Of a stretch of DNA of 64,000 bases, positions 36 through 35,731 are shown piece after piece. The stretch comes from an uncultured Ignavibacteria bacterium (GTDB taxonomy: Bacteria > Zixibacteria > MSB-5A5 > WJJR01): contig CAZQIZ010000009.1 of the NCBI GenBank assembly GCA_964593585.1, positions 306 to 64,305 on the forward strand, given 5' to 3'. The notes beneath the pieces were generated by a model. It saw only the letters and a list, made by a program, of their open reading frames with translations, had not been told where the DNA came from and ran no database searches. Numbering within the stretch: the stretch's first letter is position 1; each line of letters begins with the position of its first letter. The translations under genes were made by a program, and so were the position numbers.

Positions 36-3000
36 GTGAAGTGTATCTGTACCAGCGGTCGAACTACCAAGGCGCGATGTCGTGGCCTGCTGGTAGTCTC
101 GACCCTGCTCGTCGCGTTCGCGCTGGTCTCCAACGCGTTCTCCGCTTCAGATCCGGAACCATCCCCGCTCTTCCAGCACAGTCTCAAAACCTCGATCGAA
201 AAATTTGAGGAGCCGAATGCCGCCGCCAAGCCCGCCTACCCGGCGAAGCAGGCCAGGCCGCATCCGGAGCAGGCCCCCAATCCCGGCGCCGCCGGTGCCA
301 AGATGGCGACACTCGACGGTACCTACACCTGCACTGGGACTCCCACATGTGACGGGACGGCCACCTGCACCGGCGAGATGACCTGCAACGGCGCGCCCGA
401 CTGTCTGCCGCCGACCATGCCGGGATTCCCGACCTGCATCGGCACCCAGAGTTGCGAGGGGACGACCACCTGTCCCGGCACCGCCTCGTGCGCCGGCACC
501 GCGTCGTGCGATGGCTCGACCACCTGCTCCGGCCAGCAGACCTGCCCCGGCACCACCACCTGCGAGGGCACGCTGACCTGTCCGGGCTCGACCACCTGCA
601 GTGACCAGCCGACGTGCGGCGACCAGCCGACCTGTCTGCATTTCCCGACCTGCAACATGCAGCCGACCTGCGATGGCAAGCCGACCTGTTACAACACGGC
701 CAGTTGCCATGGCTCGATCACCTGCGATGCCGCCACGCCGACCTGCGATCAATCGCCGACCTGCGGCGGCACCGCCACCTGTACCGCGGGCGCGACCTGC
801 GATGGCACCGCCACCTGCGGCGGCGTCTCCTGCGCGGCTGGCGGAGCGACCTGTCCCGGCTACGTCACCTGCTCCGGGTCGAATACATGCGATCCAACCG
901 GCCCGACCTGCGATGGTTCGCCCTCGTGTGATGCCACCGGCGCCACCTGTGCCGGCCATCCCACCTGTCCGGGCAGCACCACCTGCAGCACCGAGCCATC
1001 CTGCGACGGCACCGCATCGTGCGCGGCCACGGTCGCGACATGCCAGGGCACAGCCAGTTGTCCCGGCTGGGCCACCTGCCAGGGGAGTGTGACCTGCCTG
1101 GGGTCGACCGGCGCCACCTGCGACGGCAACCCGACATGCAAGGGCTACGCGACCTGTAACAACGCGACCACTTGCGTCGGCTATCCGTCTTGTCCGGGCA
1201 CCTACACCTGCGAAGGATATCACACCTGCGCGGGCGCGGCGACTTGCGCCAGCAATCAGACCTGTCCGGGCACGCCAACCTGCGATGGCACCACCACTTG
1301 CGGAGCCGGTCTGCCCACTTGCGGGACTGCGGCCACATGCAGTGGCCAGAACACGTGCAACGCCAGTCTGACTTGTCCGGGCTCCAATACCTGCACCGGC
1401 ACCCAGACTTGCGACGCACAAGCCAGTTGCCCCGGCAGCGCCACCTGCGCCGGACAACAGACCTGCGCCGGCACCGTGACCTGTCAGACCGCGGCGACAT
1501 GCAATGTCACCTGCAACACCACGGCAACATGCACCGGTTACAACACCTGCTCGTGGTCGAACACCTGCCCCGGCACACCGACCTGCTCGGATCTGCAGAC
1601 CTGCGCCAATCAGCCCACCTGTCCGGGCGGAGCGGCCACCTGCCAGGGCACCACGACCTGCCACAACATCACCTGTTCCGATGTGCCGACTTGTCCGGGT
1701 TATCAGACCTGCGAGGGCTCCTACACGTGCGTGGGCTCGCCGACCTGTCCGAATCAAGCGACCTGCACCGGCTTCCAGACCTGCGCCGGCACCCCGACCT
1801 GCGCGCCGCTGCACACGTGCGGCGGAGCGGCCACCTGCGCCGGCACCGCGACCTGTTCGCCCACATTGCTGACCTGCGCCGGCCAGTTCACCTGTGCTGG
1901 CTCGATCACCTGCGCCGATGTGGTGACTTGTCCGGGCACACAGACCTGTCTGGGGTCGATCTCGTGCGGCCATACGATCACCTGCGCAGCGCTGTCGACC
2001 TGCCCCGGTTCGCCGACCTGCAAGGGCGCGACAACCTGTAAGGGCCAGGTGACCTGCAAAGGCGCGGCCACCTGTATCGGCATGCCAAGTTGCCCGCAGT
2101 CGGTCAGTTGCGCGGTGGTGACCTGCTCGCCCAGCCCGACCTGTGGCCAGCATTTCTCCTGCTGGGGACAGGCGACCTGCGCCGGTCAAAACACCTGCGC
2201 CGGCAATCCGTCATGTTTGGGTGCGGTCTCGTGCATCAACGCCAAGACTTGCGCCGGCGTGGCGACCTGCCATGGCGCACTGACCTGCCCGGGCACTCAG
2301 ACCTGCAATGGCACCACCTGTCCGGGTTCGGCGACCTGTCCGGATTCATATTCGTGCAGCGGCTTCAATACCTGCTCCGGCAGTTCCACCTGCCCGGGCA
2401 GCCCAACTTGCTGCACGCCGACATCGCCGGGATGGCCGACCTGTGAAGGCACCACCACCTGCTCCGGCTTCATGCCGACCTGCGGCGCGTGGGGACCGAC
2501 CTGCACCAACTGGCAGACCTGCACCGGCATGCCGACCTGCGGCAAGACACCGACCTGCAGCGCGACCGGCGTGACCTGCACTTCGCAGCCGACCTGCTGC
2601 TGGACCGGCACCTGCCAGGGCTCGCCGACCTGCGTCAATCAACCGACCTGCGACTTCGCCACCTGCGAAGGCAGCGTGACCTGCTTCGGCGCCTACACCT
2701 GTCAGGGCAACGTCACCTGCGAAGGCGGCGCGACTTGTCACTACTCGACCACCTGTGAGGGCTACCACACCTGCCCGAACAGCCCGACCTGCGACCATCA
2801 GGCGACCTGCGCCGGATTCACGACCTGCGTCGGCACCACGACCTGCGATGGGCCGACCTGCAACGGCACGATCTCCTGCGCCGGCACGCCGACCTGTCCC
2901 GGTCAGGCCACCTGCGCGCACACCGCGACCTGCTGGGATACGCACTCCTGCCAGGGCAACGTGACCTGTCCGGGCACAAGCACCTGCCAGGCGGCCACCT

Positions 3001-3335
3001 GCGCCGGCACCGCGACCTGCGGCGGCTACTTCACCTGCGGCCAGGCGGCCTGTGTGGCGACCTGCGTGTGCACCTGCCACGGCGACGCCAACTGCGACGG
3101 CGTCAAGGTGGATGTGCGCGACGTGGTCATTGCCATCAACATCGCCTTCCGCGGTACGCCTTCAACCTGTGATCCAGGTTGCCCGGCCGAACGCACCGAC
3201 GTCAACTGCGATGGCGTGAGCAACGTCGTCGACGTCGTCAAGATGGCCACCGTCGCCTTCCGCGGCGGCGACCCGGCCGTCGAGTTCTGCAACCCGTGCG
3301 ACACCGCGCCGCCAGGCGGCTCGACCTGCAATTAG
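36..3335 (+). CDS. Secreted 1099-aa Cys/Thr heptad-repeat protein (~130 imperfect x-G-x-x-T-C-x repeats) ending in the shared dockerin-like Cys-containing C-terminal module
   Basis: GTG start at 36 preceded by AGGAGGT (24-30). N-terminal signal peptide LLVVSTLLVAFALVSNAFSA. Residues ~95-1005 have Cys spaced every 6-7 residues (TCPGTAS-CAGTAS-CDGSTT-C...), with a matching 21-nt periodicity of ...acctgc... in the DNA. C-terminus CHGDANCDGVKVDVRDVVIAINIAFRG...TDVNCDGVSNVVDVVKMATVAFRGGDPAVEFCNPC has two D-x-N-x-D-G loops each followed by a helix, and is shared with five other proteins in the window. TAG stop followed by a terminator hairpin. Confidence 0.8.
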   Translation: MKCICTSGRTTKARCRGLLVVSTLLVAFALVSNAFSASDPEPSPLFQHSLKTSIEKFEEPNAAAKPAYPAKQARPHPEQAPNPGAAGAKMATLDGTYTCTGTPTCDGTATCTGEMTCNGAPDCLPPTMPGFPTCIGTQSCEGTTTCPGTASCAGTASCDGSTTCSGQQTCPGTTTCEGTLTCPGSTTCSDQPTCGDQPTCLHFPTCNMQPTCDGKPTCYNTASCHGSITCDAATPTCDQSPTCGGTATCTAGATCDGTATCGGVSCAAGGATCPGYVTCSGSNTCDPTGPTCDGSPSCDATGATCAGHPTCPGSTTCSTEPSCDGTASCAATVATCQGTASCPGWATCQGSVTCLGSTGATCDGNPTCKGYATCNNATTCVGYPSCPGTYTCEGYHTCAGAATCASNQTCPGTPTCDGTTTCGAGLPTCGTAATCSGQNTCNASLTCPGSNTCTGTQTCDAQASCPGSATCAGQQTCAGTVTCQTAATCNVTCNTTATCTGYNTCSWSNTCPGTPTCSDLQTCANQPTCPGGAATCQGTTTCHNITCSDVPTCPGYQTCEGSYTCVGSPTCPNQATCTGFQTCAGTPTCAPLHTCGGAATCAGTATCSPTLLTCAGQFTCAGSITCADVVTCPGTQTCLGSISCGHTITCAALSTCPGSPTCKGATTCKGQVTCKGAATCIGMPSCPQSVSCAVVTCSPSPTCGQHFSCWGQATCAGQNTCAGNPSCLGAVSCINAKTCAGVATCHGALTCPGTQTCNGTTCPGSATCPDSYSCSGFNTCSGSSTCPGSPTCCTPTSPGWPTCEGTTTCSGFMPTCGAWGPTCTNWQTCTGMPTCGKTPTCSATGVTCTSQPTCCWTGTCQGSPTCVNQPTCDFATCEGSVTCFGAYTCQGNVTCEGGATCHYSTTCEGYHTCPNSPTCDHQATCAGFTTCVGTTTCDGPTCNGTISCAGTPTCPGQATCAHTATCWDTHSCQGNVTCPGTSTCQAATCAGTATCGGYFTCGQAACVATCVCTCHGDANCDGVKVDVRDVVIAINIAFRGTPSTCDPGCPAERTDVNCDGVSNVVDVVKMATVAFRGGDPAVEFCNPCDTAPPGGSTCN

Positions 3336-3355
3336 TTCGCTTTGACATGCTCGTC

Positions 3356-3396
3356 CCGAGCGGGGAGTCGCACGACTCCCCGCTCGTTTTTTTTTG
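3356..3396 (+). terminator. Rho-independent terminator (GC stem gagcggggagtcg / cgactccccgctc followed by T9)
   Basis: Perfect 13-bp inverted repeat with a 3-nt loop, followed by ttttttttt, immediately downstream of the stop at 3335. Confidence 0.65.
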
Positions 3397-3494
3397 CGCC
3401 GTCGCCGCGCCCGAGTTTTTCTCTTGTTGATCCCCGACGCGCGCCGCTCCTTGATGCGACGGCGGAGGAGACCCGGCCGCATCGAGGAACAAAC

Positions 3495-4337
3495 ATGACC
3501 AATCGCAGCGAACCGGAAGATCACTGGTGGGAACGCTCCCGCTCCTACATCCGCGCCTACGAGGACCTCGAATTCCTCCGCCAGGATGAACTGCGCCCCG
3601 TGCGGCTGCAACTCGAACTGCTCAAGCCGGAGCTGACCCTCCAGAAGCACCGCATTCGCTCCACCATCGTGGTCTTCGGCGGCACGCGCATTTGGGAGAA
3701 ACCGGATGCCGAACGGCGTCTGTCGGAGCTGGACGCGCAATTGAAGGAGCATCCGAAGGACCCGCGGTTGCGCACGCTCCGCAAGGCGGCGGAACGGCTG
3801 CTGTCGCTGTCGCGCTTCTACGACGAGGCGCGCAAGTTCGGACGGATCGTCTCCGAGGCCAACCGCAGCGATGGCTCCGTCGACTATGTGATCGTCACCG
3901 GCGGCGGCCCCGGCATCATGGAGGCGGCCAACCGCGGCGCCTATGACGTCGGCGCCGAGTCGATCGGCTTCAACATCACGCTCCCCCACGAGCAGCGGCC
4001 CAATCACTACATCACGCCCGACCTCTGCTTCCAGTTCCGCTACTTCGCCATCCGCAAGATGCACTTCCTCCTGCGCGCCAAGGCGCTGGTGGCCTTCCCC
4101 GGCGGCTATGGCACCATGGACGAGCTCTTCGAGGCGCTCACGTTGGTGCAGACCCAGAAGGTTCCGCCCTTGCCGGTGGTGCTGATGGGACGCGAGTTTT
4201 GGAAGGATGTCCTCGACTTCGACGCGCTGGTCGAAAACGGCGTCATCGACCCTGAGGACAAGGACCTCTTCATCTACGCCGAAACCGCCGAAGAGGCCTG
4301 GGACTACATCCGCGAATTCCGCGCCAATCAGACGTAG
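3495..4337 (+). CDS. LOG-family protein (TIGR00730-type Rossmann nucleotide-binding protein; putative cytokinin-riboside 5-prime-monophosphate phosphoribohydrolase / nucleotide nucleosidase)
   Basis: ATG at 3495 with GAGGA RBS. Motifs VTGGGPGIMEAANRGA (GGGxGxM) and FPGGYGTMDELFE (PGGxGTxxE) are diagnostic of the LOG family. The longer ORF-track version starting at 3342 runs through the upstream terminator and is unlikely. Confidence 0.8.
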   Translation: MTNRSEPEDHWWERSRSYIRAYEDLEFLRQDELRPVRLQLELLKPELTLQKHRIRSTIVVFGGTRIWEKPDAERRLSELDAQLKEHPKDPRLRTLRKAAERLLSLSRFYDEARKFGRIVSEANRSDGSVDYVIVTGGGPGIMEAANRGAYDVGAESIGFNITLPHEQRPNHYITPDLCFQFRYFAIRKMHFLLRAKALVAFPGGYGTMDELFEALTLVQTQKVPPLPVVLMGREFWKDVLDFDALVENGVIDPEDKDLFIYAETAEEAWDYIREFRANQT

Positions 4338-4518
4338 TAGTCATTATCATCCGCGACCTCGTATTTGCGCCACGCATCTGTCATTTCAGACCGTTCGCGG
4401 CGCCCCGTGCCGCGAACGGTTTGCTGGCTTTGCCTTTCAGGAGGACAGACATTCTTGTCTGTCCATCGCCGCGTGATGCGGGTCCGTTTTTATGACCCGC
4501 CGAACGAGGCGATACGCA

Positions 4519-4618
4519 CGGCAGGGATGCCCGTCCGCGCCATGCCGTTCCCGATCGCGCGGCAAAAAAGCGCCCCGCAATCGGGAACGGCAGGTCAGAC
4601 AAGAATGTCCGACCTCCT
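4519..4618. repeat. Copy 1 of a ~100-bp structured direct repeat (internal inverted arms gccgttcccgatcgcg / cgcaatcgggaacggc around cggcaaaaaagcgcccc)
   Basis: About 95% identical to 5679-5777. Sits in a hairpin-dense intergenic region (4340-4730) that also contains accgttcgcggc/gccgcgaacggt and ggacagaca-ttct-tgtctgtcc hairpins. Confidence 0.6.
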
Positions 4619-4731
4619 CATCAAGGGCCAATGTCGCCTTCGCTCCGCCATCTCGCCGCCAGCTTGACAAACAGGAGCGGGTGTCATACTCTTTCATTGT
4701 AAGCGGCCCGCCATTTGTCCTCGGAGGAAAC

Positions 4732-5657
4732 ATGTCGTTCTTCAGGACCCTCTTCGCGTCCGCGATTCTCGTCGCCATGGTGGTTCATCCCGCGTTCGCC
4801 GACAATTCCATCGTCGTCGAGTCCCGTACCTTCGCGCCTGGACAGACCGTCTGCACCGTCGGCGTCTTCGTTTCCAATGAGGTCCCGATTGTCGGCATGG
4901 TCTTCCAACTCGAGGCTCGCGCGGTCTCCGGAGGCGCCTACTTCGTCGGCCCGGTAGGTTCATCATTCTTCCAAGTGCGGGCCGGCGCACGCGTGGATGC
5001 GTCTCCGCTGGGTTCGGCCGACCCGTTGGGGCGTTGGCCGGAAGCATTGTGCACACGCCGCCGTTTCGCCACGCCGGCCGCGACCAACAGTTGCAGCGGC
5101 CCGGTGTCGAGCACATGGGCAACCCCGACCGCCTCGGTCGACGGCATCAGCCCGGACCCCGTCGAGTACGCACCGTCAGCGTTGCCGATCCGCAGGCGGA
5201 TGAGGAGTATGCCCTGGCGGCCGGAGCCGATCCCGCCACCCGCGACAGCGCGTCCTTCTTCTTTGTTTTCGATGTGAACACGAACATCGGTTGCTTCGAG
5301 ATCGACTCCTGCTGCACCACGCCGGCCAATCACATCGCCTTCGTCGATGAATTCACCAATGCCATCGTGCCGTCTTTCACCAAGGGCACGATCTGCATTT
5401 CCGGCTGCTTCTGCGAGTGCCATGGCAATCCCGCCGTGGCAAGCAATCCGAACATCGATGTTCTCGATGTCGTTTACACCCTCTACGTCGCCTTTCGAGG
5501 GCAATCGAGTATCCCGGATACCAGCCCCGTGTGCCCGGTGAATGCCACCGACGTGGACTGCAATGGCCACAGCGATGTCATTGATGTCATCAAGATGATT
5601 GACGTGGCCTTCCGCTCCGCCGACCCGGCCTCGGTCTTCTGCGACCCCTGCCCTTGA
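4732..5657 (+). pseudogene. Secreted small protein with the dockerin-like C-terminal module, split by an apparent frameshift (N-terminal part in frame of 4732, C-terminal part in frame of 5034)
   Basis: ATG at 4732 with GGAGGA RBS and signal peptide MSFFRTLFASAILVAMVVHPAFA. The plausible protein sequence continues in a different frame from ~5150 on (TVSVADPQADEEYALAAGADP...CFCECHGNP...DVDCNGHSDVIDVIKMIDVAFRSADPASVFCDPCP) and ends at 5657. The frame-1 ORF degenerates into Arg/Pro-rich sequence before its stop at 5277. The shift is somewhere in 5000-5180. Confidence 0.45.
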
Positions 5658-5678
5658 CCGGTGACGCGAATAATCGTT

Positions 5679-5777
5679 GCGGCAGGGATGCCCGTCCGCG
5701 TAATGCCGTTCCCGATCGCGGGGCAAAAAAGCGCCCCGCAATCGGGAACGGCAGGTCAGACAGGAATGTCTGATCTC
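5679..5777. repeat. Copy 2 of the ~100-bp structured direct repeat
   Basis: gcggcagggatgcccgtccgcg..atgccgttcccgatcgcg.ggcaaaaaagcgccccgcaatcgggaacggcaggtcagaca.gaatgtc matches 4519-4618 with ~5 mismatches. Same orientation; the two copies flank the frameshifted gene. Confidence 0.6.
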
Positions 5778-5925
5778 CTATGAGAAACTTCTTTTCAATT
5801 GGGTCGCGGCGTCTTGTGCCGCGACCGGCTTGGAATCTTTGTTCCCCCGACCGCTTGCCAAATCCGCAAAATCCCGTACCTTGCGGAGTGATTTGCTCGT
5901 TTTACTTCACACAGACGGACTGCGA

Positions 5926-8631
5926 ATGACAATCAAACGTGTATTGCTGACCGCCGGCGCGCTGCTCGGCGTGGCCATCGTGTACCTGTCCCTGACCCAG
6001 CGCGAGCGCACTTCGCCCTCGCGCGCCTACTTCACCATGGTGCATGACTTTGTCGCCCAACGCGGCAAGGTTCCCAAGGCCAAGGCCCGTCCCAACGACT
6101 GGTTCTACCTCCAACGCGCCTGGCCGGGAGACGATGTCCCCGTCGAGGCGCGCATGAAGGCGAAGAACAAGGCGCTCGACCTCCAGCGCGCGTCCGCCGC
6201 CAAGGACGCCCAAACCGCGCCGGTCTGGTCCGATGCCGGACCGACCAACATCCCCGGACGGGTCGTCGACCTTGCCATCAATCCCTACAACTCCAGCATC
6301 GTCTTCGCCGCCTCGGCCGCCGGCGGTGTGTTCAAGTCAATCGATGGCGGCAACAATTGGACGCCGATCTTCGATGACCCCGGGCCGCAGCCGATGGGCG
6401 CGATCGCGATCCACCCGATCAACGACAACATCCTCTATGCCGGCACCGGCGAAGCCAACGCCGCCACCGACAACTACGAGGGCACCGGCATCTACAAGAC
6501 CATCGACGGCGGCGCATCCTGGACCCTGGTGGGCCTGCCCAACAGCTACAGCATCGGCCGCATCGTCATCGATCCCCTCCGCCCCGAAACCGTCTATGTC
6601 GCCGTCGCCGGACGCATGTTCGGCACCAATCCCGAACGCGGCCTCTACCGCTCGCAAAACGGCGGCGCCAGTTGGGAGCAATTGCTCTACATCAACGACA
6701 CCACCGGCTGCATCGATGTCGCCTTCCATGCCTCCACCGGCACCATTCTCGCCGGCATGTGGCAGCGCTGGCGCAATCCAATGCAACGGCAGGCGGGGGG
6801 ATGGTCGACCGCGATCTGGCGCTCGACCGACTTCGGCGCAAACTGGACGAAGCTCAATGGCGGTGTGACCCCCGGATTCGGATTGCCGGCGCCGTCGGCG
6901 ATCCTCGGACGCATCGGCCTGGCACTGACGCAAAACTCCGAGACCGTCTACGCGATGTTCGATGAGCATCCCGGCAACTTCGCCGGCATCTACCGCAGCG
7001 ATGACCTCGGCGGTTTCTGGTCGCGTGTCAACGATGCCGCCTTGAGCGGCTTTACCGGCGGATTCGGGTGGTATTTTGGCCAGATCCGCTGCCACCCCGG
7101 CGATCCCGAGGTGGTCTTCGCGCTCGGTGTGCCGCTCTACAAATCCGTCGACGGCGGCGCCTCCTGGAGTGAGATGGCCGGCAACATCCACGTCGATTTC
7201 CACGCGCTCGCTTTCAGCCCCACCAACAGCAACCAGATCTACCTCGGGGGCGACGGCGGCGTGGCCTACAGCGCCGACGGCGGCAACAACTTCACGCCGC
7301 GCGCCAACATGGGCAATTCGCAGTTCTATGCCATGACCATCGACAAACTCAATCCCGAACGTCTCTACGGCGGCACGCAGGACAACGGCACCCTGCGCAC
7401 GCTCACCGGCGCGCTCAACGATTGGGATCACATCCTCGGCGGAGATGGTTTCTACACCGTGGTCGATTTCACCAATTCCAACGTCATCTACGCCGAATTC
7501 CAGAACGGCTACCTGCTGAAATCCCCCGACCTCGGCGCGAATTTCTACTACGCCATGAACGGCATCGACTATAACAATGACCGACACAACTGGTCGACGC
7601 CCTTTGAGATGGCGCCCTACAACAACAATGTTCTCTACTACGGTTCCCATCGGCTGTATAAGACCAGCGATGGCGCCGCCAATTGGGCGCCGATCTCCGG
7701 CGATCTGACCGATGGCGATGATCCCGGCAACCTCGCCTTCGGCACCATCACCACCATTGGCGTGTCGCCCAACACGCCGGGCGTCGTCTACGTTGGCACT
7801 GACGACGCCAATATCTGGGTGACGCAGAATGACGGCGGCAACTGGACGAATATCACAGCCGGACTGCCCAACCGCTGGGTCACGCGCCTGACCGTCCACC
7901 CGACCAATCCCGCCATCGCCTATGTGACCCTCTCCGGTTACAAACTCGCCGACCATGAGGCGCACATTTACCGGACCAGCAACTATGGCGCGGCCTGGAC
8001 ACCGATCGCCGGCAACCTCTTCGATGCGCCGATCAACGATGTTGTCATCGATCCCGACTATCCCGATTCAGCGCTCTACATCGGCACCGACTATGGCGTC
8101 TACATGACTCATGACGGCGGCCAGAACTGGATCCCGCTCGATCAGGGGATGCCGCTTTTGACCCCCGTCCACGACATCGATTTCCATCAGGGCACGCGCA
8201 AGCTCGTCGCCGGCACCCATGGCCGCTCGATGTTCAAGACCACCGTTGCCTGCCCCGACGTAGTCGATGCCGACGGCGACAATGTCATGGATTTCTGCGA
8301 CAATTGCCCGGCCGCGAGCAATCCCGGTCAGGAGGATGCGGACGCCGATGGCATCGGCGACGCCTGCGAGGCCTGCGCCTGCGCCTGCCATGCCGATCCG
8401 CTCTGCGATGGCATCCGCAACAACGTGCAGGATGTCGTGCTCAGTGTCAGTGTCGCGTTCCGCGGCGCGGCCATCGCTCCCGATCCCAGCCCGACCTGTC
8501 CGCGCGAACCCACCGACGTGAACTGCGACGGCGTCACCGGGGTGGTCGATGTCGTCAAGATCGTCAATGTGGCGTTCCGTGGGGCCAACCCGCTCACGGA
8601 ATACTGCAACCCGTGCCCGCCGACTTCCTGA
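5926..8631 (+). CDS. Secreted BNR/Asp-box repeat beta-propeller protein (sortilin/Ycf48/GH74-like) with thrombospondin-type-3-like Ca-binding repeats and the shared dockerin-like C-terminal module
   Basis: At least 9 S-x-D-x-G-x-x-W Asp-boxes (SIDGGNNWT, TIDGGASWT, SQNGGASWE, STDFGANWT, SVDGGASWS, SADGGNNFT, TSDGAANWA, QNDGGNWT, TSNYGAAWT). DADGDNVMDFCDNCPAASNPGQEDADADGIGDACE repeats. C-terminus CACACHADPLCDG...TDVNCDGVTGVVDVVKIVNVAFRGANPLTEYCNPCP. Start set at ATG 5926 (MTIKRVLLTAGALLGVAIVYLSL signal/anchor); an upstream in-frame ATG at 5830 is possible. Confidence 0.75.
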   Translation: MTIKRVLLTAGALLGVAIVYLSLTQRERTSPSRAYFTMVHDFVAQRGKVPKAKARPNDWFYLQRAWPGDDVPVEARMKAKNKALDLQRASAAKDAQTAPVWSDAGPTNIPGRVVDLAINPYNSSIVFAASAAGGVFKSIDGGNNWTPIFDDPGPQPMGAIAIHPINDNILYAGTGEANAATDNYEGTGIYKTIDGGASWTLVGLPNSYSIGRIVIDPLRPETVYVAVAGRMFGTNPERGLYRSQNGGASWEQLLYINDTTGCIDVAFHASTGTILAGMWQRWRNPMQRQAGGWSTAIWRSTDFGANWTKLNGGVTPGFGLPAPSAILGRIGLALTQNSETVYAMFDEHPGNFAGIYRSDDLGGFWSRVNDAALSGFTGGFGWYFGQIRCHPGDPEVVFALGVPLYKSVDGGASWSEMAGNIHVDFHALAFSPTNSNQIYLGGDGGVAYSADGGNNFTPRANMGNSQFYAMTIDKLNPERLYGGTQDNGTLRTLTGALNDWDHILGGDGFYTVVDFTNSNVIYAEFQNGYLLKSPDLGANFYYAMNGIDYNNDRHNWSTPFEMAPYNNNVLYYGSHRLYKTSDGAANWAPISGDLTDGDDPGNLAFGTITTIGVSPNTPGVVYVGTDDANIWVTQNDGGNWTNITAGLPNRWVTRLTVHPTNPAIAYVTLSGYKLADHEAHIYRTSNYGAAWTPIAGNLFDAPINDVVIDPDYPDSALYIGTDYGVYMTHDGGQNWIPLDQGMPLLTPVHDIDFHQGTRKLVAGTHGRSMFKTTVACPDVVDADGDNVMDFCDNCPAASNPGQEDADADGIGDACEACACACHADPLCDGIRNNVQDVVLSVSVAFRGAAIAPDPSPTCPREPTDVNCDGVTGVVDVVKIVNVAFRGANPLTEYCNPCPPTS

Positions 8632-9417: not shown

Positions 9418-9511
9418 TGAGACTTCGTCAGTACACCACTCCCACATTGTCACCCCGAGCGCAGCGAGGGGTCTGCTCTTTGCTCTCCCATTATCACCCG
9501 CTCGTCAAAGC

Positions 9512-28586: not shown

Positions 28587-28600
28587 AAATCTGACACGGC

Positions 28601-28651
28601 CGATCCGCTTTCGCCCACTTTCCTGACCACAGGAGCGGCGAAAGCGGATCG
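28601..28651 (+). terminator. 15-bp inverted repeat (cgatccgctttcgcc ... ggcgaaagcggatcg) immediately after the paralog D stop; possible terminator or regulatory stem-loop
   Basis: Perfect 15-bp arms separated by a 21-nt loop. No T-tract, so function as an intrinsic terminator is uncertain. Confidence 0.3.
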
Positions 28652-28710
28652 CGCCAGTCCGGTTTGAACCCCGGAATCGGGCCGAAATCCCTCTCCTACT
28701 TCTTTCAGAT

Positions 28711-28725
28711 CAGACTATATTACTC
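28711..28725 (+). promoter_or_regulatory. Conserved CAGACTATATTAC motif (-10-like) 70 nt upstream of the paralog E start
   Basis: Matches the motif upstream of paralog D. Confidence 0.25.
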
Positions 28726-28794
28726 GCAAATCCCGTCACCGCGACGGCCGCTGTCTTACCTGTTGTTAAAACTGATCGTACCAGGAGGTCGCCA

Positions 28795-31302
28795 ATGACT
28801 CGCCGTATCATGACGGGAGTTCTCCTGCTGTTGGCTTTATCCACTACGGCGCACGCCGCCGTCCCGACCAGCATCACCGTGCAGGGCAAACTGACCGATT
28901 TGTCCGGCAACCCGCTGCCCGCCGGATCGAAGAATTTCACCTTCAAGATTTTCGATTCCCCCACGCTCGGCAATGAAATCTGGCCCAATGGGGCAGGGGA
29001 GAATCAGTCGCTGACCAGCGACGCCGCCGGTCTCTGGATCGGACTGGTCGGCGCGGTGGCACCGCTGACCGATGCGGTCTTCAGCGACACGGTTCGCTGG
29101 CTGGAAATCACCGTCGATGGGACCACGCTGCCGCGCGTGCGGCTTGTGACCGGGCCCTATGCCTACCGGGTATCGACGATCGACGGCGCCTCCGGCGGCA
29201 GGATCACCTCGAAGGTCACGATTGGCCTGTCCAACGCGAACACCGGCAACGACGGGTTTGTCGCCGGAACGGATAATCAGGCGCTCGCCAACTACACGGT
29301 CATCGGCGGCGGCGTACTGAACACCGCCACCGGCGAATCGAGCGTCGTGTCAGGCGGTCAGCAGAACGACGCGACCGGCTTCGCCGCCAGTGTCGCAGGT
29401 GGAGCGAACAACACCGCGTCCAACACACACGCGACCGTTGGCGGCGGATTGACGAATATGTCATCCGGCCTCCACTCCGTTATCGATGGCGGAATCTACA
29501 ATTTTGCGACGAGTACGGGATCCGTCGTTGGCGGCGGCGCCAACAATAACGCGCGCGGCCAGTATTCCACCGTCGCCGGCGGCGGGCCGGCCCTGACGGA
29601 CTCCAACACGGCCGGCGGCGACTTCTCGCGCATCGGCGGCGGCTTCGGCAATGTGGCGTCGGGGCACGCCAGCAGCATCGATGGCGGCCACTACAACATC
29701 GCGTCCGGGCTCTACAGCACGATCGGAGGCGGTCAATTCAACGCCGCCCAGGGCACGTTCTCGACGATCGCCGGCGGTGGAATCGCAAACATCTTCAATG
29801 GCCAGAACATCGCCGAGGGTTACGCGACGGTGATCGGCGGGGGCTCCGCGAACCGTGCCGTGCACAACTATTCAACGATCGGCGGCGGATTGAACGGACA
29901 GACACGGGGCGCATACTCCACGCTCGCCGGGGGATACAGCAATCTGACGGACGGCGACAATGCCACCGTGGGAGGCGGCGATCGCAACGCCGCCGCGGGG
30001 ACCGGCGCCACGGTGAGCGGCGGCACGCTTAACTACACAAACGCGATCGGTGCGGTTGTCGCCGGCGGCGACACCAATTCCGCGCAGGGCTTCTTTGCGG
30101 TCGTGGGCGGCGGCATCCTCAATGACGCCCCCGGCCACGAAAGCGTGGTCGAAGGGGGACGTGACAACACGGCCTCCGGCGATCTCGCCACCGTGGGCGG
30201 CGGCGCCTACAACACCGCATCGGGCGCCGGCTCGCACATCTCCGGTGGGTTCAATAATACGGCTGTCGGCGAACGCTCGACTATTGGTGGGGGAGAGCAG
30301 AACCGTGCCTATGGCAGTTTTGCCACTGTTTGTGGCGGCGGCGGCGGACTCCCAGTCGACTCGAATTCCGCCGCCGGCAATTTCTCATTCGTCGGTGGCG
30401 GGAGCCGCAACTCCGCCAGCGGCCCCGGCGCCGTCATCGCAGGCGGCGACTCAAACCGCTCCAAGGGCCAGAACTCAACGGTGGGCGGCGGCGGGTTCAA
30501 TGTCGCTGGCGGCACCAATGCAACAGTTCCGGGCGGCCTCGCGAACGAAGCCAATGCCCCCTTCACTTTTCCCGCCGGGTCGTTCGCGCACGCGAACCAT
30601 GCCGGGAGCTTCGTCTGGGCGGACCACAATTTTCTCGACTCATTCTACACGACTGCCACCAACCAGTTCATCATCCGTGCCAGCAGCGGCGTCGGCATCG
30701 GCACGAACACCCCGCAGCAGCTCCTCAGTGTCGCTCAGGGAATGAATATCGATCAGGCCAATGCGAACGATGGCGCACTTTGGAACGGCCTGAGCTTCGG
30801 CTCCACAAGCGGCGAAGGCATTGCTTCGAAACGTACCGCCGGCGGCAATCAGTATGGATTGGACTTCTACACCAACTCAATCAACCGTGTTAGCATTGCG
30901 AACGCGACCGGGTATGTTGGCTTCGGACTGACCAATCCATCCTATCGGATCGACCTGCCGAACGTCGCGAATGCCGCCGGCCAGGGCCGCGCGAATGCGT
31001 GGACGACGTATAGTTCACGCCGCTGGAAGACGAATATCACGACACTGTCCCACGCGGTCGACAAGGTCCGTCAACTCCGCGGCGTTGAATACGACAACGC
31101 CGCCGACAACCGCCACGCCATCGGGCTGATCGCCGAGGAAGTCGGCGCCGTCATCCCGGAAGTCGTGCAATACGAAGCCAATGGTGTCGATGCCGCCGCG
31201 CTGGACTATGGTCGTCTGGTTGCCGTGCTGATCGAGGCCATCAAGGAACAGCAGCGCCAGATCGATTTGCTCAATCGCAAACTGGAACGGATCACGCCTT
31301 AA
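28795..31302 (+). CDS. Fibre-like surface protein paralog E (835 aa), with S74-like C-terminal chaperone domain
   Basis: AGGAGG RBS. Signal peptide MTRRIMTGVLLLLALSTTAHA. N-domain nucleotide sequence ~100% identical to paralogs F and G over ~270 bp. C-terminus SSRRWKTNITTL...IGLIAEEVGAVIPEVV...LIEAIKEQQRQIDLLNRKLERITP. Confidence 0.85.
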   Translation: MTRRIMTGVLLLLALSTTAHAAVPTSITVQGKLTDLSGNPLPAGSKNFTFKIFDSPTLGNEIWPNGAGENQSLTSDAAGLWIGLVGAVAPLTDAVFSDTVRWLEITVDGTTLPRVRLVTGPYAYRVSTIDGASGGRITSKVTIGLSNANTGNDGFVAGTDNQALANYTVIGGGVLNTATGESSVVSGGQQNDATGFAASVAGGANNTASNTHATVGGGLTNMSSGLHSVIDGGIYNFATSTGSVVGGGANNNARGQYSTVAGGGPALTDSNTAGGDFSRIGGGFGNVASGHASSIDGGHYNIASGLYSTIGGGQFNAAQGTFSTIAGGGIANIFNGQNIAEGYATVIGGGSANRAVHNYSTIGGGLNGQTRGAYSTLAGGYSNLTDGDNATVGGGDRNAAAGTGATVSGGTLNYTNAIGAVVAGGDTNSAQGFFAVVGGGILNDAPGHESVVEGGRDNTASGDLATVGGGAYNTASGAGSHISGGFNNTAVGERSTIGGGEQNRAYGSFATVCGGGGGLPVDSNSAAGNFSFVGGGSRNSASGPGAVIAGGDSNRSKGQNSTVGGGGFNVAGGTNATVPGGLANEANAPFTFPAGSFAHANHAGSFVWADHNFLDSFYTTATNQFIIRASSGVGIGTNTPQQLLSVAQGMNIDQANANDGALWNGLSFGSTSGEGIASKRTAGGNQYGLDFYTNSINRVSIANATGYVGFGLTNPSYRIDLPNVANAAGQGRANAWTTYSSRRWKTNITTLSHAVDKVRQLRGVEYDNAADNRHAIGLIAEEVGAVIPEVVQYEANGVDAAALDYGRLVAVLIEAIKEQQRQIDLLNRKLERITP

Positions 31303-31313
31303 GGAGCGCTCTT

Positions 31314-33587
31314 ATGCGACAACTCACGCTCGGACTGCTCGCCTTGCTGCTGGCCACGACGCCCCTTCACGCCGCCGTCCCGGCCAGCATCACCGTGCAG
31401 GGCAAACTGACCGATCTGTCCGGCAACCCGCTGCCCGCCGGATCGAAGAATTTCACCTTCAAGATTTTCGATTCCCCCACGCTCGGCAATGAAATCTGGC
31501 CCAATGGGGCAGGGGAGAATCAGTCGCTGACCAGCGACGCCGCCGGTCTCTGGATCGGACTGGTCGGCGCGGTGGCACCGCTGACCGATGCCGTCTTCAG
31601 CGACACGGTTCGCTGGCTGGAAATCACCGTCGATGGCACGACCCTGCCGCGGGTGCGCCTGGTAACAGGGCCCTATGCGCATCGTGTCGCCACCGTCGAT
31701 GGCGCATCGGGCGGCACGATCACCAGCAAGGTCTCCATCGGTCCGGGTCACATCAACACGGGCACCCACGCCTTCGTCGCCGGCTCCTACAACGTCGGAA
31801 CGGGCAATTACTCGACCATTGCCGGCGGTGAAACCAACACCGCCTCCGGCGACCGCGGCAGTGTCGGCGGCGGCGCGCAGAATCACGCCGAAGGATTCGG
31901 TTCCACTGTTGACGGCGGCTGGTACGGCCACGCCTGGGGCAACTTTGCCGTGATCGGCGGCGGCGGCGGGATCTTCGATATGGATTCTAACAGCGCCGGC
32001 AACTGGGGCGTGGTGGCCGGCGGGCACATGAACCATGCGATCGGCGAAGGCGCGGTCGTCGGTGGCGGCGCGCGCAATCGCGCCCGCGGCGAATACTCCG
32101 TCATTGCCGGCGGCGGCGGCTTCACCGATGCCGATTCGAATGTCGCCTCCGGCTCCCACGCCGTCATCGGTGGCGGCACCGGCAACACTGCCTCCGGATT
32201 CCACAGTCTGATCGGCGTCGGACGCTCCAATCTCGCCAGCGGCTATCACGCCGCCATCCTCAGCGGCGCCATCAACGTGGCCGGCGGACAGTACGGCGTC
32301 GTGGCGGGCGGGTACGACAACCACGCCATCGGCTGGATGTGCTCGATTGTCGGCGGCGCCAGCAATCGCGCCGACAACAACAACTCCTTTGTGGGAGGCG
32401 GGGAATACAATGAGGCCACCGGCTCACATGCCGTCATCGGCGGCGGCCAGAGCAATCAGGCCCTCGGTGATTACTCCGTCATCGCCGGCGGCGGCAATAC
32501 CAGCGCCGACTCCAACCGCGCGCAGGGGGCATACTCGGCCATCGGCGGCGGAAACCTCAACCTCGCCATGGCTGACTACGCCGTCACCTGCGGCGGCCTG
32601 AAAAACGGCGCCTGGGGATATGGCAGCGGCGTCGCCTCCGGATACCTCAACGAAGCGGAGGGAACGTACTCGTTCATCGGGGGCGGCAACAACAACCTCA
32701 TCCTCTACGCGCGCTCCTTCATCGGCGGCGGCGAGGGCGGCCAGGTGAGCGGCCAGCACTCCGTCATCGCCGGCGGCAACGGCAATTACGTCGGCTCCGA
32801 TGTAGCCTCCATCGTCGGCGGCACACGCAACATGATCAACTTCACCAACTCGGGCGGTTCCTTCATCGGCGGCGGCTGGGAAAACTATGTCGATGGTTTC
32901 GACGCGGTTGTCGGCGGCGGATTCCATGATTCCGCCTCCGGCAATCAGGCGGCGGTCTGTGGCGGCCACACCAACCACGCCGCCGGAAACCTCTCGTTCG
33001 TCGGCGGGGGGGACTTCAACCGCGCCACCGGCGACTGGGCCTGCATCCCCGGCGGCGGCTCGAACGCCGCCGCGGGCCAGTTCGCCTTCGCCGCGGGACG
33101 TCAGGCCAAGGCCAATCACAGCGGCGCCTACGTCTGGTCCGACAACAACCCCTTCGACTTCGCCTCGCTGGCCAATAACAGTTTCTCGGCGCGCTGCCTC
33201 GGCGGCGCGCGCTTCGTGACCGCCATCAGCGCCGGCGGCGTCCCCACACAGGGCGTGACTCTGGCCGCCGGCGGCGGATCGTGGGCGGGGATCTGCGACA
33301 GCGCCGTCAAGGAGAACATTCGCGACGTCGACGGCGCCGAAATCCTCCGCCAACTCGCCGCCCTGCGCATCGCCGAGTGGAATTACATCGCCCAGGATGA
33401 CAGCGTCCGTCACCTCGGGCCCATGGCGCAGGACTTCCGACGCGCCTTCGGCATCGGCGAAGACGATCGCCACATCACCCAGGTCGACGCCGATGGCGTC
33501 GCGCTGGCCGCCATTCAGGAGCTCATCCGCCGCATCGAAATGCTGGAAGGCGAGCTCGCGCGGCTCCGCGCACGGAATGGCGATTGA
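31314..33587 (+). CDS. Fibre-like surface protein paralog F (757 aa), with a divergent S74-like C-terminal domain
   Basis: AAGGAG RBS, ATG 11 nt after the paralog E stop. N-domain identical to paralog G over ~370 bp. Divergent C-terminus CDSAVKENIRDVDGAEILRQL...LGPMAQDFRRAFGIG...LAAIQELIRRIEMLEGELARL retains the K-x-N-I and A-Q-x-x / I-x-E-L pattern. Confidence 0.8.
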   Translation: MRQLTLGLLALLLATTPLHAAVPASITVQGKLTDLSGNPLPAGSKNFTFKIFDSPTLGNEIWPNGAGENQSLTSDAAGLWIGLVGAVAPLTDAVFSDTVRWLEITVDGTTLPRVRLVTGPYAHRVATVDGASGGTITSKVSIGPGHINTGTHAFVAGSYNVGTGNYSTIAGGETNTASGDRGSVGGGAQNHAEGFGSTVDGGWYGHAWGNFAVIGGGGGIFDMDSNSAGNWGVVAGGHMNHAIGEGAVVGGGARNRARGEYSVIAGGGGFTDADSNVASGSHAVIGGGTGNTASGFHSLIGVGRSNLASGYHAAILSGAINVAGGQYGVVAGGYDNHAIGWMCSIVGGASNRADNNNSFVGGGEYNEATGSHAVIGGGQSNQALGDYSVIAGGGNTSADSNRAQGAYSAIGGGNLNLAMADYAVTCGGLKNGAWGYGSGVASGYLNEAEGTYSFIGGGNNNLILYARSFIGGGEGGQVSGQHSVIAGGNGNYVGSDVASIVGGTRNMINFTNSGGSFIGGGWENYVDGFDAVVGGGFHDSASGNQAAVCGGHTNHAAGNLSFVGGGDFNRATGDWACIPGGGSNAAAGQFAFAAGRQAKANHSGAYVWSDNNPFDFASLANNSFSARCLGGARFVTAISAGGVPTQGVTLAAGGGSWAGICDSAVKENIRDVDGAEILRQLAALRIAEWNYIAQDDSVRHLGPMAQDFRRAFGIGEDDRHITQVDADGVALAAIQELIRRIEMLEGELARLRARNGD

Positions 33588-33640
33588 TGAAATCGGAGTT
33601 TTTGCTCGCCCGTATCTGGGCGGATTGACAGGAGGTCCCG

Positions 33641-35731
33641 ATGCGATTCACCATCCGATTGTCACTCATCGTGCTCTTGCTGTTGCCGTCACTGGCGCAC
33701 GCCGCCGCCCCGACCAGCATCACCGTGCAGGGCAAACTGACCGATCTGTCCGGCAACCCGCTGCCCGCCGGATCGAAGAATTTCACCTTCAAGATTTTCG
33801 ATTCCCCCACGCTCGGCAATGAAATCTGGCCCAATGGGGCAGGGGAGAATCAGTCGCTGACCAGCGACGCCGCCGGTCTCTGGATCGGACTGGTCGGCGC
33901 GGTGGCACCGCTGACCGATGCCGTCTTCAGCGACACGGTTCGCTGGCTGGAAATCACCGTCGATGGCACGACCCTGCCGCGGGTGCGCCTGGTAACAGGG
34001 CCCTATGCGCATCGTGTCGCCACCGTCGATGGCGCATCGGGCGGAACCATCACCAGCAAAGTGTCCATCGGCCCCGGCCACACGAACACTGGCAACCATG
34101 CCTTCGTAGCTGGAGAAGGCAATGCGGCGTCCGGGCACTACGCCACCGTCAGCGGCGGCATCGGCCACAACGCCGGCGGTGAGAACGCTGTGGTGGGCGG
34201 CGGCGCTTACAACCGCGCCGATGGTCTCTCGTCCGTCGTGGCCGGCGGCTACGCCAACGCCGCGCTCAACACCGACGCGGTTGTCGTCGGCGGCTACGCC
34301 GATTCCGCCCTTGGCTATCGCTCCTTTATCGGCGGCGGCGCCGACAACAACACCAGCGCCGATGCCAGCAGCGTCGTCGGCGGCACCGCCAACCTCGCCG
34401 GCGGCGGCGGATCGTTCATCGGCGGCGGCATCGGCAACAAGACCGCTGGCTTCGATGCCGTCGTGGCCGGCGGCGCGACCAATGTCGCTTCCGGGTCACG
34501 CTCGTTCGTGGGCGCCGGGCAGAGCGATTCCGCGCTCGGAGCGCGCTCCGCCGTCGTCGCCGGACAACTCAATTCCGCCTACGGCTCTCAATCCTTCATC
34601 GGCGCCGGCGGCAGCAACCGTGCCGGCAACTCCGCCGCCGTCGTCGCCGGAAGCGCCAGCGAAGCCACCGGCAACGCCGCCTTCATTGGCGCCGGCACCC
34701 TCAACGAGGCGTCGGGACTGTACGCGGTCATCGGCGGCGGCTCCCAGAACATTGCCACGCACTACGGCGCCGTGGTGGTCGGCGGCGAGAACAACGATGC
34801 CGACTCGACGCTCACGTTTGTCGGCGGCGGCGTTCACAACATCGCCCGCGGTAACCTCTCTGCGGTGGTCGGCGGCAGCAGCAATCAGGCGCTGGCACCC
34901 AACGCCTTCGTCGGCGGCGGCGCCAATAATGTTGCCTCCAACTTCTACAGTGTCGTCGCCGGCGGATTCTACGATTCGGCCAGTGGAGGAAACGCCGTTG
35001 TCGGCGGCGGCTACTTCAATCTCGCCGAAGGTTCCGTGTCAACCATTGCCGGCGGCAGTTATGGACGCGCCCGTGGCGGTTTCTCCTTCATCGGCGGCGG
35101 TGGATTCTTCGGCGATGCCGACTCCAATTACACGCACGGCACCGGCTCCGCCGTCGTCGGCGGCGCCCGCAACGGCGCGCTCGGCGACTACGCCGTCGTG
35201 CCCGGCGGATATGGCAATCGCGCCGTCGGTAGCCACTCCATGGCGGCGGGCGAAAACGCCTCCGCCGACCACGATCACTCCTTCGTCTGGAATGACAACT
35301 CGGCGGGCGCGTTCGCCTCGACCGCCGCCAGTCAATTCGCGATTTCTGCCGCCAATGGACTGCGGCTGGCGCGCGCCGCCGGCGACGCCAAGGCGATTGT
35401 GCCGGGTGATCACTACCGCGACAACGGCATCATCGCCTGGGCCAAAGTCGCCGGCAGCAGCGGCGCCATCGGCACCAATGAGTTCGGCGTCGTGTCCGTT
35501 GTACGCAATTCCACCGGGTACTACACCATCACCCTCGACGCCTCCGCGAGCGTCTCCACGACACTTATTCCGGTGGTCACGGCGCTGGTCGACCGCGCGC
35601 CGACCGATCCCTCGTTCGCCCGGCTGATCTATGCCCAGCAGGTTGGCATCAACTCGTTCAGCGTCTATGTCACCGATGGCAACTACGCCGCCGCCGACAC
35701 CGATTTCACCTTCCTGGTGACCGCACGATAA
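33641..35731 (+). CDS. Fibre-like surface protein paralog G (696 aa), lacking the S74-like chaperone domain and ending in a different C-terminal domain
   Basis: AGGAGG RBS. Signal peptide MRFTIRLSLIVLLLLPSLAHA. Conserved N-domain. Gly/Asn/Ala/Val repeats. C-terminal ~150 aa (GIIAWAKVAGSSGAIGTNEFGVVSVVRNSTGYYTITLDASASV...) has no SDxRLK or LIEAxKE motifs. Confidence 0.8.
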   Translation: MRFTIRLSLIVLLLLPSLAHAAAPTSITVQGKLTDLSGNPLPAGSKNFTFKIFDSPTLGNEIWPNGAGENQSLTSDAAGLWIGLVGAVAPLTDAVFSDTVRWLEITVDGTTLPRVRLVTGPYAHRVATVDGASGGTITSKVSIGPGHTNTGNHAFVAGEGNAASGHYATVSGGIGHNAGGENAVVGGGAYNRADGLSSVVAGGYANAALNTDAVVVGGYADSALGYRSFIGGGADNNTSADASSVVGGTANLAGGGGSFIGGGIGNKTAGFDAVVAGGATNVASGSRSFVGAGQSDSALGARSAVVAGQLNSAYGSQSFIGAGGSNRAGNSAAVVAGSASEATGNAAFIGAGTLNEASGLYAVIGGGSQNIATHYGAVVVGGENNDADSTLTFVGGGVHNIARGNLSAVVGGSSNQALAPNAFVGGGANNVASNFYSVVAGGFYDSASGGNAVVGGGYFNLAEGSVSTIAGGSYGRARGGFSFIGGGGFFGDADSNYTHGTGSAVVGGARNGALGDYAVVPGGYGNRAVGSHSMAAGENASADHDHSFVWNDNSAGAFASTAASQFAISAANGLRLARAAGDAKAIVPGDHYRDNGIIAWAKVAGSSGAIGTNEFGVVSVVRNSTGYYTITLDASASVSTTLIPVVTALVDRAPTDPSFARLIYAQQVGINSFSVYVTDGNYAAADTDFTFLVTAR

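Follow-up and report, generated by a model that had tools for sequence, protein, structure and literature searches.

What brings together, within some 36 kb, thirteen genes for secreted proteins that fall into two families? The question is raised by the window analysed here (by which we mean the whole stretch of DNA, 64,000 nucleotides from an uncultured bacterium of the Zixibacteria lineage). Its positions 36-35731 are filled by two families of secreted proteins: a module of proteins closed by a common C-terminal tag (36-17920) and a module of fibre proteins (19242-35731). The preliminary description of this DNA spoke of thirteen large proteins, each either tagged with a dockerin-like module or belonging to the fibre family; thirteen genes of two families were indeed recovered, although one of the tagged genes encodes a product of only ~305 residues and is frameshifted. 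The statement that all thirteen are secreted holds. Signal peptides were called by eye from the N-termini, and a basic n-region with a hydrophobic h-region was seen in all 13 tagged and fibre proteins, one of which, the BNR protein described below, may have an uncleaved signal anchor as its N-terminal segment. According to our analysis, the evidence leans towards reading 36-35731 as a variable cell-surface island, in which the tag would serve for docking, a domain that we call X would be its partner, and the fibres would belong to the same apparatus. Related loci and homologous proteins are cited below by numbers preceded by L and P, respectively.

The C-terminal tag and its passengers

When the six-frame translation of the window was searched with a hidden Markov model (HMM) of the tags, exactly six copies emerged, all within 1-18 kb (E from 1e-29 to 1e-44, against 1.8 for the next match). 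They close the open reading frames (ORFs) 36-3335, 4881-5654, 5830-8631, 12050-13699, 13993-16365 and 16385-17920, and the passengers of the six proteins are mutually unrelated. The tag is ~85 residues long and has the consensus CxCxCHaDPxCDG...vlDVVxxvNVAFRG...DPsPxCP...TDVnCdGvxxvvDVVkmVNVAFRGgnPatEFCxPC, that is, a loop-helix unit in duplicate with eight conserved cysteines, which are located in CxCxCH ahead of repeat 1, in each of the loops (one per loop), in the linker (one) and in FCxPC at the end.

An AlphaFold2 model of the tag, based on a 60-sequence alignment, had a mean predicted confidence (pLDDT) of 89 and contained two helices with a loop before each. When this model was compared with the PDB by Foldseek, the best 16 matches were all dockerins, with template-modelling scores (TM-scores), normalised to the target, of 0.51-0.80, except for two double-dockerin (8x39) chains. 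The tag also consists of two tandem loop-helix (F-hand) segments of ~22 residues in a module of ~70 residues, as dockerins do. On the predicted structure, the tag has a dockerin fold, and the dockerin-like module of the preliminary description is borne out by the model and the Foldseek search. The calcium-binding loops of type I dockerins have Asp/Asn at positions 1, 3, 5, 9 and 12 in both repeats. Read from the sequence, loop 2 (DVNCDGvxxvvD) of the tag keeps positions 1, 3, 5 and 12 of such an F-hand, and loop 1 (DPxCDGxxxvxD) keeps 1, 5 and 12; its position 2 is Pro and its position 3 varies. A sequence search of the PDB with the tag returned the Ruminococcus dockerin 5lxv_B at E 1.8, and in two homologues of the X family, P0426 (33.4 bits) and P0434 (31.6 bits), the module at the position of the tag passes the Pfam Dockerin_1 cutoff of 22.9.

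The tag is a lineage-specific, Cys-rich module. Searched against 1.84 billion cluster representatives, its profile recovered 835 proteins at E<=1e-10, and in 119 of the 122 proteins examined the tag ends <=15 residues from the C-terminus. The diversity of its cargo was taken from this search of representatives; the first homologue search listed only proteins of <=184 residues. The named sources of the homologues are nearly all metagenome-assembled genomes (MAGs) of Zixibacteria. Weaker tag-like double F-hand modules were observed in MAGs of DPANN archaea (Pacearchaeota, Micrarchaeota and Woesearchaeota; L032, L033, L035 and L036); these are 34-60% identical to the window tag and lie internally in large proteins, not at the C-terminus. 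Full-text searches found no literature on dockerins or cohesins of Zixibacteria.

All six tagged genes are on the forward strand. The first product (36-3335; 1099 residues) carries a signal peptide, a long region of TC hexapeptide repeats and the tag (~3078-3332; E 5.6e-39). It contains ~152 hexapeptides of the form xGxxTC and 165 cysteines; of 152 Cys-Cys spacings, 125 are exactly 6. The protein belongs to no family of Pfam or NCBIfam, and its repeats may form a new disulfide-laddered fold. The third protein (5926-8631) combines the signal peptide or anchor with a BNR/Sortilin-Vps10 beta-propeller (Pfam Sortilin-Vps10, E 3.9e-29), a TSP3-like linker and the tag (E 1.2e-44). It comes near the F510_1955 glycosylhydrolase family (NF045728, 157 bits, under the cutoff of 175), and its orthologues in L003 and L044 are 73-74% identical. 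In the fourth (12116-13699; 527 residues), a signal peptide is followed by FG-GAP (integrin-alpha-like) repeats (Pfam FG-GAP, E 4e-34) and the tag (E 3.2e-39). The fifth (13993-16365) has a signal peptide, five CxxCH haem motifs (residues 49, 98, 130, 213 and 285), TSP3 and MopE metal-binding motifs (Pfam Cu-binding_MopE, E 3.3e-23) and the tag (E 1.5e-40); this tagged pentahaem c-type cytochrome recalls the dockerin-bearing multihaem cytochromes of anaerobic methanotrophic (ANME) archaea. The sixth (16385-17920) consists of a signal peptide, a DUF5122/Rax2-type beta-propeller (Pfam Rax2 and DUF5122), a TSP3-like linker and the tag (E 2.4e-42).

The second tagged gene (4732-5657; signal peptide, X domain and tag) is the frameshifted one. 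A mechanical ORF list showed it as a 207-residue ORF without a signal peptide; its signal peptide, MSFFRTLFASAILVAMVVHPAFA, is read in the frame upstream, and the HMM of the X domain matches in both frames. A deletion of 1 nt in an Ala codon near 5168 (5168-5170) separates them, and the homologues in L024, L030 and L039 change frame at ~5150-5172 of the window when aligned by tblastn. In another assembly, an intact orthologue of 308 residues (P0355) is 94% identical to the ~305-residue product.

Pfam detected no sorting domain of the type IX secretion system (T9SS), namely Por_Secre_tail, CHU_C or FlgD_ig, in any of the 13 tagged and fibre proteins of the window. Such domains are present on orthologues or neighbours in L015, L026, L050 and L053. 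The TC-repeat protein of the window and its L003 orthologue bear the tag, and the shorter orthologue in L015 ends in FlgD_ig/CHU_C/Por_Secre_tail; in four X proteins (P0383, P0385, P0392 and P0400), Por_Secre_tail/FlgD_ig occupies the position of the tag. The tag is swapped with T9SS domains on orthologous proteins, and therefore belongs to the C-terminal modules that address proteins to the surface. A literature search for work joining T9SS and dockerins found nothing relevant.

The preliminary description placed the partner of the tag, if there is any, outside the window. As it said, no cohesin gene was recognised in the window, but a candidate partner may lie inside it, in the second tagged protein. 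The X domain has ~190 residues with the conserved motifs CSGP, FEIDTCC and PSFTKG, and it is probably all-beta, because its sequence shows an alternating hydrophobic pattern. The idea that X is a cohesin homologue gained no sequence support, as Pfam, hmmsearch against the PDB and hhalign were all negative. Its relatives combine X with the tag in 77 of 87 cases and X with a T9SS C-terminal domain in four of the 87. Among the best tag matches, X is present in all seven multi-tag proteins, against 4 of the 115 with a single tag (Fisher p = 5e-9), and the multi-tag proteins alternate the two modules (tag-X-tag-X), for instance as tag-X-tag-X-tag-X-tag in P0231. Scaffoldins, adaptors and anchoring scaffoldins are built by these rules of domain order, and we therefore regard X as the likeliest candidate partner of the tag. 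X genes also adjoin fibre arrays in four loci, namely the window, L026, L049 and L053.

The fibre array and its linkage to tagged genes

Seven fibre paralogues lie head to tail on the forward strand at 19242-35731. All of them share one order of parts: a signal peptide, an N-domain of ~115 residues, 15-residue GGxxNxAxGxxSxV repeats, a neck and a divergent distal region. The repeats have a period of 45 nt and a variable copy number and gave weak LbR_Ice_bind matches, and the neck is conserved as ANHxGSFVWAD...NQFLIRAxGGVGI. Fibre 1 (19242-20915; 557 residues), with its signal peptide, Ig-like N-domain, 15-residue beta-roll repeats and neck, ends in an S74 domain with the motif SDARLK. It is followed by fibre 2 (20927-23494; 855 residues; S74 motif SDGRLK), fibre 3 (23584-25623; 679 residues from the Met preceding the signal peptide; SDLRLK), fibre 4 (25836-28586; 916 residues, counted likewise from the Met preceding the signal peptide; SDERFK), fibre 5 (28795-31302; 835 residues; the variant SSRRWK, in which Ser replaces Asp), fibre 6 (31314-33587; 757 residues; a divergent S74 domain with CDSAVK, in which Cys replaces the nucleophile Ser) and fibre 7 (33641-35731; 696 residues; a non-S74 tip). 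Pfam Peptidase_S74 is matched by six of the seven (E 8e-9 to 2e-17), with SDxxxK in four and SSRRWK and CDSAVK in one each.

The N-domain was modelled from fibre 2 (model me88d085daa90, pLDDT 86) and is predicted to be a beta-sandwich of a generic Ig-like kind, not cohesin-like. All seven N-domains match the NCBIfam family Bdello_MAT_N (NF053851), and no other family is matched consistently; the matches are weak (best E 8.8e-6, ~20 bits against a cutoff of 60 bits) and cover 42 residues (model positions 3-44). This family takes its name from the mosaic adhesive trimer (MAT) fibres of Bdellovibrio bacteriovorus, in which a signal peptide precedes an invariant beta-rich N-domain of ~130 residues and the tips are of either an S74 or a non-S74 type (Caulton et al. 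2024, PMC10769870). The window fibres resemble them in the signal peptide followed by a beta-rich N-domain of ~115-130 residues without a close PDB homologue, in the long repetitive shaft, in the mosaic divergent tips, in the repertoire of many paralogues and in the presence of S74 (SDxxxK) and non-S74 subgroups in one genome. They differ in that their N-domains are only weakly and partially similar to Bdello_MAT_N, that two of their S74 motifs are substituted (SSxxxK and CDxxxK), that all seven genes stand in a single tandem array, which is linked to genes for dockerin-tagged and X-domain proteins, and that predation is not known from the host phylum. By the architecture read from their sequences, the fibres of the window are MAT-like adhesins. 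The YadA-type membrane anchor that closes trimeric autotransporter adhesins (YadA_anchor, Pfam) was not matched in the fibres, and S74 domains stand at the C-termini instead.

Comparison of the paralogues with one another revealed two regimes of divergence. In the N-domain, they reach 98% protein identity and 97% identity at third codon positions, the latter peak belonging to copies 6 and 7. In the neck and S74 region, the same pairs have 20-37% protein identity, and their third positions mostly stay near the ~50% level of all pairs. Seven 5' cassettes (19264-19719, 20952-21407, 23612-24067, 25864-26319, 28823-29278, 31339-31794 and 33669-34124) are homogenised at synonymous sites. Since near-identical third positions are confined to the N-domain, the 5' cassette is kept uniform by gene conversion, and the fibre genes evolve as mosaics with a uniform 5' cassette and a diverging remainder. 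The family has >500 relatives; among the best 120, the N-domain was found in 113, S74 also in 88, and no S74 in 24, and none of the 120 carries the tag.

The linkage of the two families was followed in relatives from both sides. The nearest related loci belong to MAGs of Candidatus Zixiibacteriota, some of which keep the gene order; protein identity to the window is 70-76% for L003 and 55-68% for L039 and L030. The organism of the window is therefore most likely a member of this phylum. A scan of 185,579 species genomes with the tag pattern gave 37 loci, which come from five Zixibacteria-like MAGs, two of which bear the labels Acidobacteriota and Ignavibacteria, and from four MAGs of DPANN archaea. 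Tagged genes are spread across many contigs per genome, often with 2-5 in tandem. Fibres occur in four of the 37 loci (L012, L013, L015 and L026), of which L013, L015 and L026 represent two islands of one 1.76-Mb contig (CAYJMP010000001; ~318-357 kb and 894-922 kb), both with tagged and fibre genes interleaved. Fibre-seeded loci were chosen without regard to tags, and a metagenome scan seeded on the fibre N-domain returned 4 loci. A tagged gene lies <=10 kb from the fibres in the window, L044, L048, L049, L051 and L041; in L044, the orthologue of the window's BNR gene is followed by three different tagged genes and then a fibre, and in L041, one tagged gene lies ~7 kb downstream of the last fibre gene.

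The linkage of tag and fibre genes is thus frequent, but not obligatory. The idea of a functional island put forward in the preliminary description is a reasonable reading, because the linkage recurs beyond this contig, in several related genomes and metagenome contigs; at the same time, fibre arrays and tagged loci are often separate. The block is also not an ordinary conserved core, as a synteny comparison suggested earlier now shows. L003 retains the order TC-repeat, LOG and BNR gene without the X-tag gene, and the cargo genes between BNR and fibres differ between the window and L044. The block therefore combines conserved anchors with fast internal turnover. The idea that the fibres are the distal elements of one display system finds no footing at the level of single proteins, as no fibre carries the tag.

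A family of small proteins may bridge this gap. Each has a signal peptide, a linker, a motif of 50 residues in the middle and then the tag or another tail. The consensus of this mid-motif is Y.IDW.SINGGG...S.NY.MG.S.GQS.AG...S.NYQMG.GFWYG, as in IDWYSINGGG…STNYQMGIGFWYG. Genes with mid-motif and tag come after fibre genes, usually directly, in three other genomes, and were found in L012 (2537-3382), L013 (7633-8367), L015 (8194-8826), L026 (10181-10855), L048 (11601-12113) and L051 (14033-14629). In a lineage without tags, the gene that comes after the fibres joins the mid-motif to a T9SS C-terminal domain (L050, 14975-16372), and in another lineage it carries a different tail (L054, 12060-12617). 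The mid-motif proteins may be fibre adaptors. A further candidate is the fn3 lipoprotein (17990-18892, reverse strand; lipobox LWLGGC; Pfam fn3), which in the window is divergent from the fibre array. A 57% identical protein is encoded in L053 (2441-3340, reverse strand), divergently upstream of a seven-gene fibre array. The lipoprotein is a candidate for anchoring the fibres in the outer membrane or for regulating them.

Explanations of the block

If the block is the variable surface island towards which we lean, the tag would be a module for non-covalent docking: it would hold its passenger to a partner at the cell surface and thus serve the same function as the T9SS C-terminal domain found in its place in some orthologues. 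The X domain would be that docking partner. The fibres would be part of the same surface apparatus as the tagged proteins: the Ig-like N-domain would hold the fibre at the cell, followed by a beta-roll shaft of variable length, a divergent distal part and, in six copies, a self-cleaving S74 chaperone. In other genomes, the small tagged mid-motif proteins would join the fibres to the apparatus; in the window, this role would fall to the fn3 lipoprotein, whose gene lies divergently ahead of the array.

Several observations weigh against this explanation. None of the six window tags reaches the Pfam Dockerin_1 threshold; two of the six match, with a best E of 0.047, and calcium-binding loop 1 is degenerate, with Pro as its second residue and no fixed third residue. 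Pfam scans of the window and of ~0.7 Mb of related loci revealed no cohesin, SLH or other known anchor, so that a cohesin/dockerin-like or S-layer-associated display system, as suggested in the preliminary description, gains no support. The X domain (16 sequences) has no Pfam family, a PDB sequence search with it was equally empty, and hhalign gave a probability of 0.4% against verified CipA cohesins. In a diderm cell, tagged proteins would have to cross the outer membrane without a T9SS domain. As for the fibres, 33 of the 37 tag-seeded loci are without them; arrays in L042/43, L052, L053, L054 and L050 have no tagged neighbour within 10 kb; the tag is on no fibre; no protein unites the two families; and the window has no mid-motif gene, even with the search filters off. 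Moreover, the adjacency of tag and fibre genes was judged on the loci examined.

Instead of docking, the tag might act as a signal for export or sorting, in place of the T9SS domain, that a machinery of secretion or attachment recognises and perhaps removes; the clustering would then reflect no more than co-regulated substrates of this machinery. The position of the tag, <=15 residues from the C-terminus in 119 of 122 proteins, would be expected of such a signal, as would its interchange with Por_Secre_tail/FlgD_ig in the TC-repeat protein of L015 and in four X proteins; the hosts are diderm members of the Fibrobacterota-Chlorobiota-Bacteroidota (FCB) group with T9SS substrates nearby (L042, L050 and L053), and no cohesin was found. 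We nevertheless consider a sorting signal unlikely, for the predicted fold of the tag is that of dockerins, which bind proteins, whereas T9SS domains are Ig-like sandwiches; X-domain proteins contain internal and repeated tags (up to four), and the modules of some homologues exceed the Dockerin_1 threshold. Doubtful to a similar degree is the explanation that the two halves are functionally unlinked, being secreted families that expanded independently in one accessory hotspot of surface genes. Tagged and fibre genes adjoin each other in six or more independent genomes or contigs, and in the two islands on one 1.76-Mb contig; the succession of a fibre gene and a small tagged mid-motif gene is kept at least six times, with a T9SS tail in another lineage; and X genes stand beside fibre arrays in four loci. 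A hotspot would, on the other hand, account for the fibre arrays without tags (L042/43, L052, L053 and L054), for the 33 of 37 tagged loci without fibres, for the lack of any protein that combines tag and fibre, and for the gene content between BNR and fibres, which varies between the window and L044; in addition, no compositional or promoter/terminator signal unites the block.

This composition bears also on the origin of the block. GC is ~64% and flat along the whole window, and the tetranucleotide profile of the 36-kb block correlates with that of the rest of the window at r = 0.967 (control 0.981). A comparison of 1-36 kb with 36-64 kb, proposed as a check of the preliminary description, therefore gave no island signal; the sole tetranucleotide outlier in the block, 1-4 kb, is due to the TC-repeat gene located there. 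With flat GC and a native tetranucleotide profile, a foreign origin of the block was ruled out. That the fibre array is left over from a prophage or a phage-tail-like particle, unrelated to the surface of the cell, appears highly improbable. It could be thought of because Peptidase_S74 is best known from phage tailspikes, homologues are named 'tail fiber domain-containing protein', and integrase/recombinase genes lie near fibres in L041 and L048. Yet every fibre has a Sec signal peptide, 1-36 kb contains no phage structural, baseplate or sheath gene, the tetranucleotide composition is native, relatives, too, carry 4-7 paralogues in tandem at chromosomal sites, and in Bdellovibrio, fibres of the same architecture belong to the surface of the cell (PMC10769870).

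The reading as a surface island can be carried further, to a cohesin-free, cellulosome-like scaffold in Zixibacteria in which the X domain binds the Cys-rich tag; this extension is tentative, and we hold it to be rather less than probable. In such a scaffold, X with a T9SS C-terminal domain would be the base bound to the cell, X-tag and (tag-X)n proteins would serve as adaptors and polymers, and enzymes, integrin-like proteins and multihaem cytochromes would dock by their tags, while the MAT-like fibres would plug in through tagged mid-motif adaptors. The result would be a modular and quickly reshuffled display on the outer surface of a diderm bacterium. The likeness to cellulosomal scaffoldins is one of architecture only: X alternates with dockerin-fold tags (P0231), X with a single tag resembles an adaptor scaffoldin, and X with a T9SS C-terminal domain resembles an anchoring scaffoldin. 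The X domain differs from the modules of scaffoldins in its ~190 residues, its CSGP and EIDTCC motifs and the lack of detectable sequence similarity to cohesins or any other family, and the anchoring proposed here would proceed through T9SS instead of SLH or sortase.

Neighbouring genes, known systems and significance

The genes interspersed in the block are those named in the preliminary description: a LOG gene, a membrane protein of the DUF4153 family, the fn3 lipoprotein and a protein of 200 residues. The untagged LOG/lysine-decarboxylase-like gene (3342-4337, forward strand; Pfam Lysine_decarbox, E 6.9e-31) lies between the TC-repeat and BNR genes also in L003, with 76% amino acid identity. 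The 200-residue product of 8815-9417 (forward strand, from the gene call) matched no Pfam or NCBIfam family and ends in LQLRLTF; judged by this C-terminal Phe motif, it is possibly a small outer-membrane barrel. The polytopic DUF4153 membrane protein is encoded at 9512-11347 on the reverse strand (Pfam DUF4153, E 2.2e-25). A scan of 17-36.5 kb for promoters and terminators gave no useful excess over the shuffled expectation, and a search of the window for tRNA genes and integration sites found no tRNA. The window corresponds to bases 378-64377 of a 94-kb contig from JGI metagenome 3300037501. Because it starts 377 nt from the end of the contig, the island may continue upstream.

To the right of 36 kb, ordinary genes (M16, M14, GNAT, a binding protein and a TPR pair) are syntenic in L039 and L030. 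The M14 carboxypeptidase gene (39123-41921) has an in-frame TAA at 39888-39890 (…VDVLNQ*NPQVVVDAHEMG…), across which the homologue in L039 aligns. Together with the frameshift at ~5168, the window thus contains two disrupted genes, which could be real pseudogenes or assembly errors. An ORF at 61600-62790 has a weak Phage_capsid_4 match (E 2.8e-6) and could be a part of a prophage remnant or encode an encapsulin-like shell protein. On the reverse strand, 48871-51851 holds a helicase-like ORF (Helicase_C, archaeal helicase domain 4) followed by a DUF559 endonuclease-like ORF, and the pair might be a defence or repair cassette.

Among known systems, the tag comes closest to type I dockerins, with which it has in common two tandem F-hand repeats, a length of ~70 residues, the C-terminal position on diverse secreted passengers and Asp/Asn at positions 1, 3, 5 and 12 of loop 2. 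It differs from them in its eight conserved cysteines, the degenerate loop 1 and the sub-threshold Dockerin_1 score, as well as in its setting: a diderm host of the FCB group, the lack of a detected cohesin and the exchange with T9SS domains in orthologues. Outside cellulosomes, both bacteria and archaea have dockerin-like modules (Peer et al. 2009, as cited in PMC9012536), and ANME archaea carry dockerins on proteins such as multihaem cytochromes (PMC9012536). The idea of a docking tag thus has a precedent, since these ANME dockerins are non-cellulosomal and, as in the window, a multihaem cytochrome is among the proteins that carry them (PMC9012536). The tagged proteins also resemble T9SS cargo with Por_Secre_tail or CHU_C, which likewise comprises diverse exoproteins of the FCB group with a C-terminal address module, at the same position in orthologues; the tag is, however, predicted to be a helical F-hand pair and not an Ig-like beta-sandwich.

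Zixibacteria are uncultured, and to our knowledge, nothing has been published on their cell surface. Our analysis of the tag-fibre neighbourhoods points to a previously undescribed surface-display system in this uncultured phylum. If this is true, a whole phylum would address hundreds of exoproteins to its surface by a private variant of the dockerin, including multihaem cytochromes relevant to extracellular electron transfer, and would keep arrays of recombining MAT-like fibres, which have so far been studied only in a predator. The X domain provides a concrete and testable candidate for a dockerin partner that is not a cohesin, and the system could yield new orthogonal docking pairs for protein engineering. 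Furthermore, the swapping of dockerin tags and T9SS anchors on orthologous proteins offers a natural example that bears on the way in which proteins are attached to the outer face of diderm bacteria.

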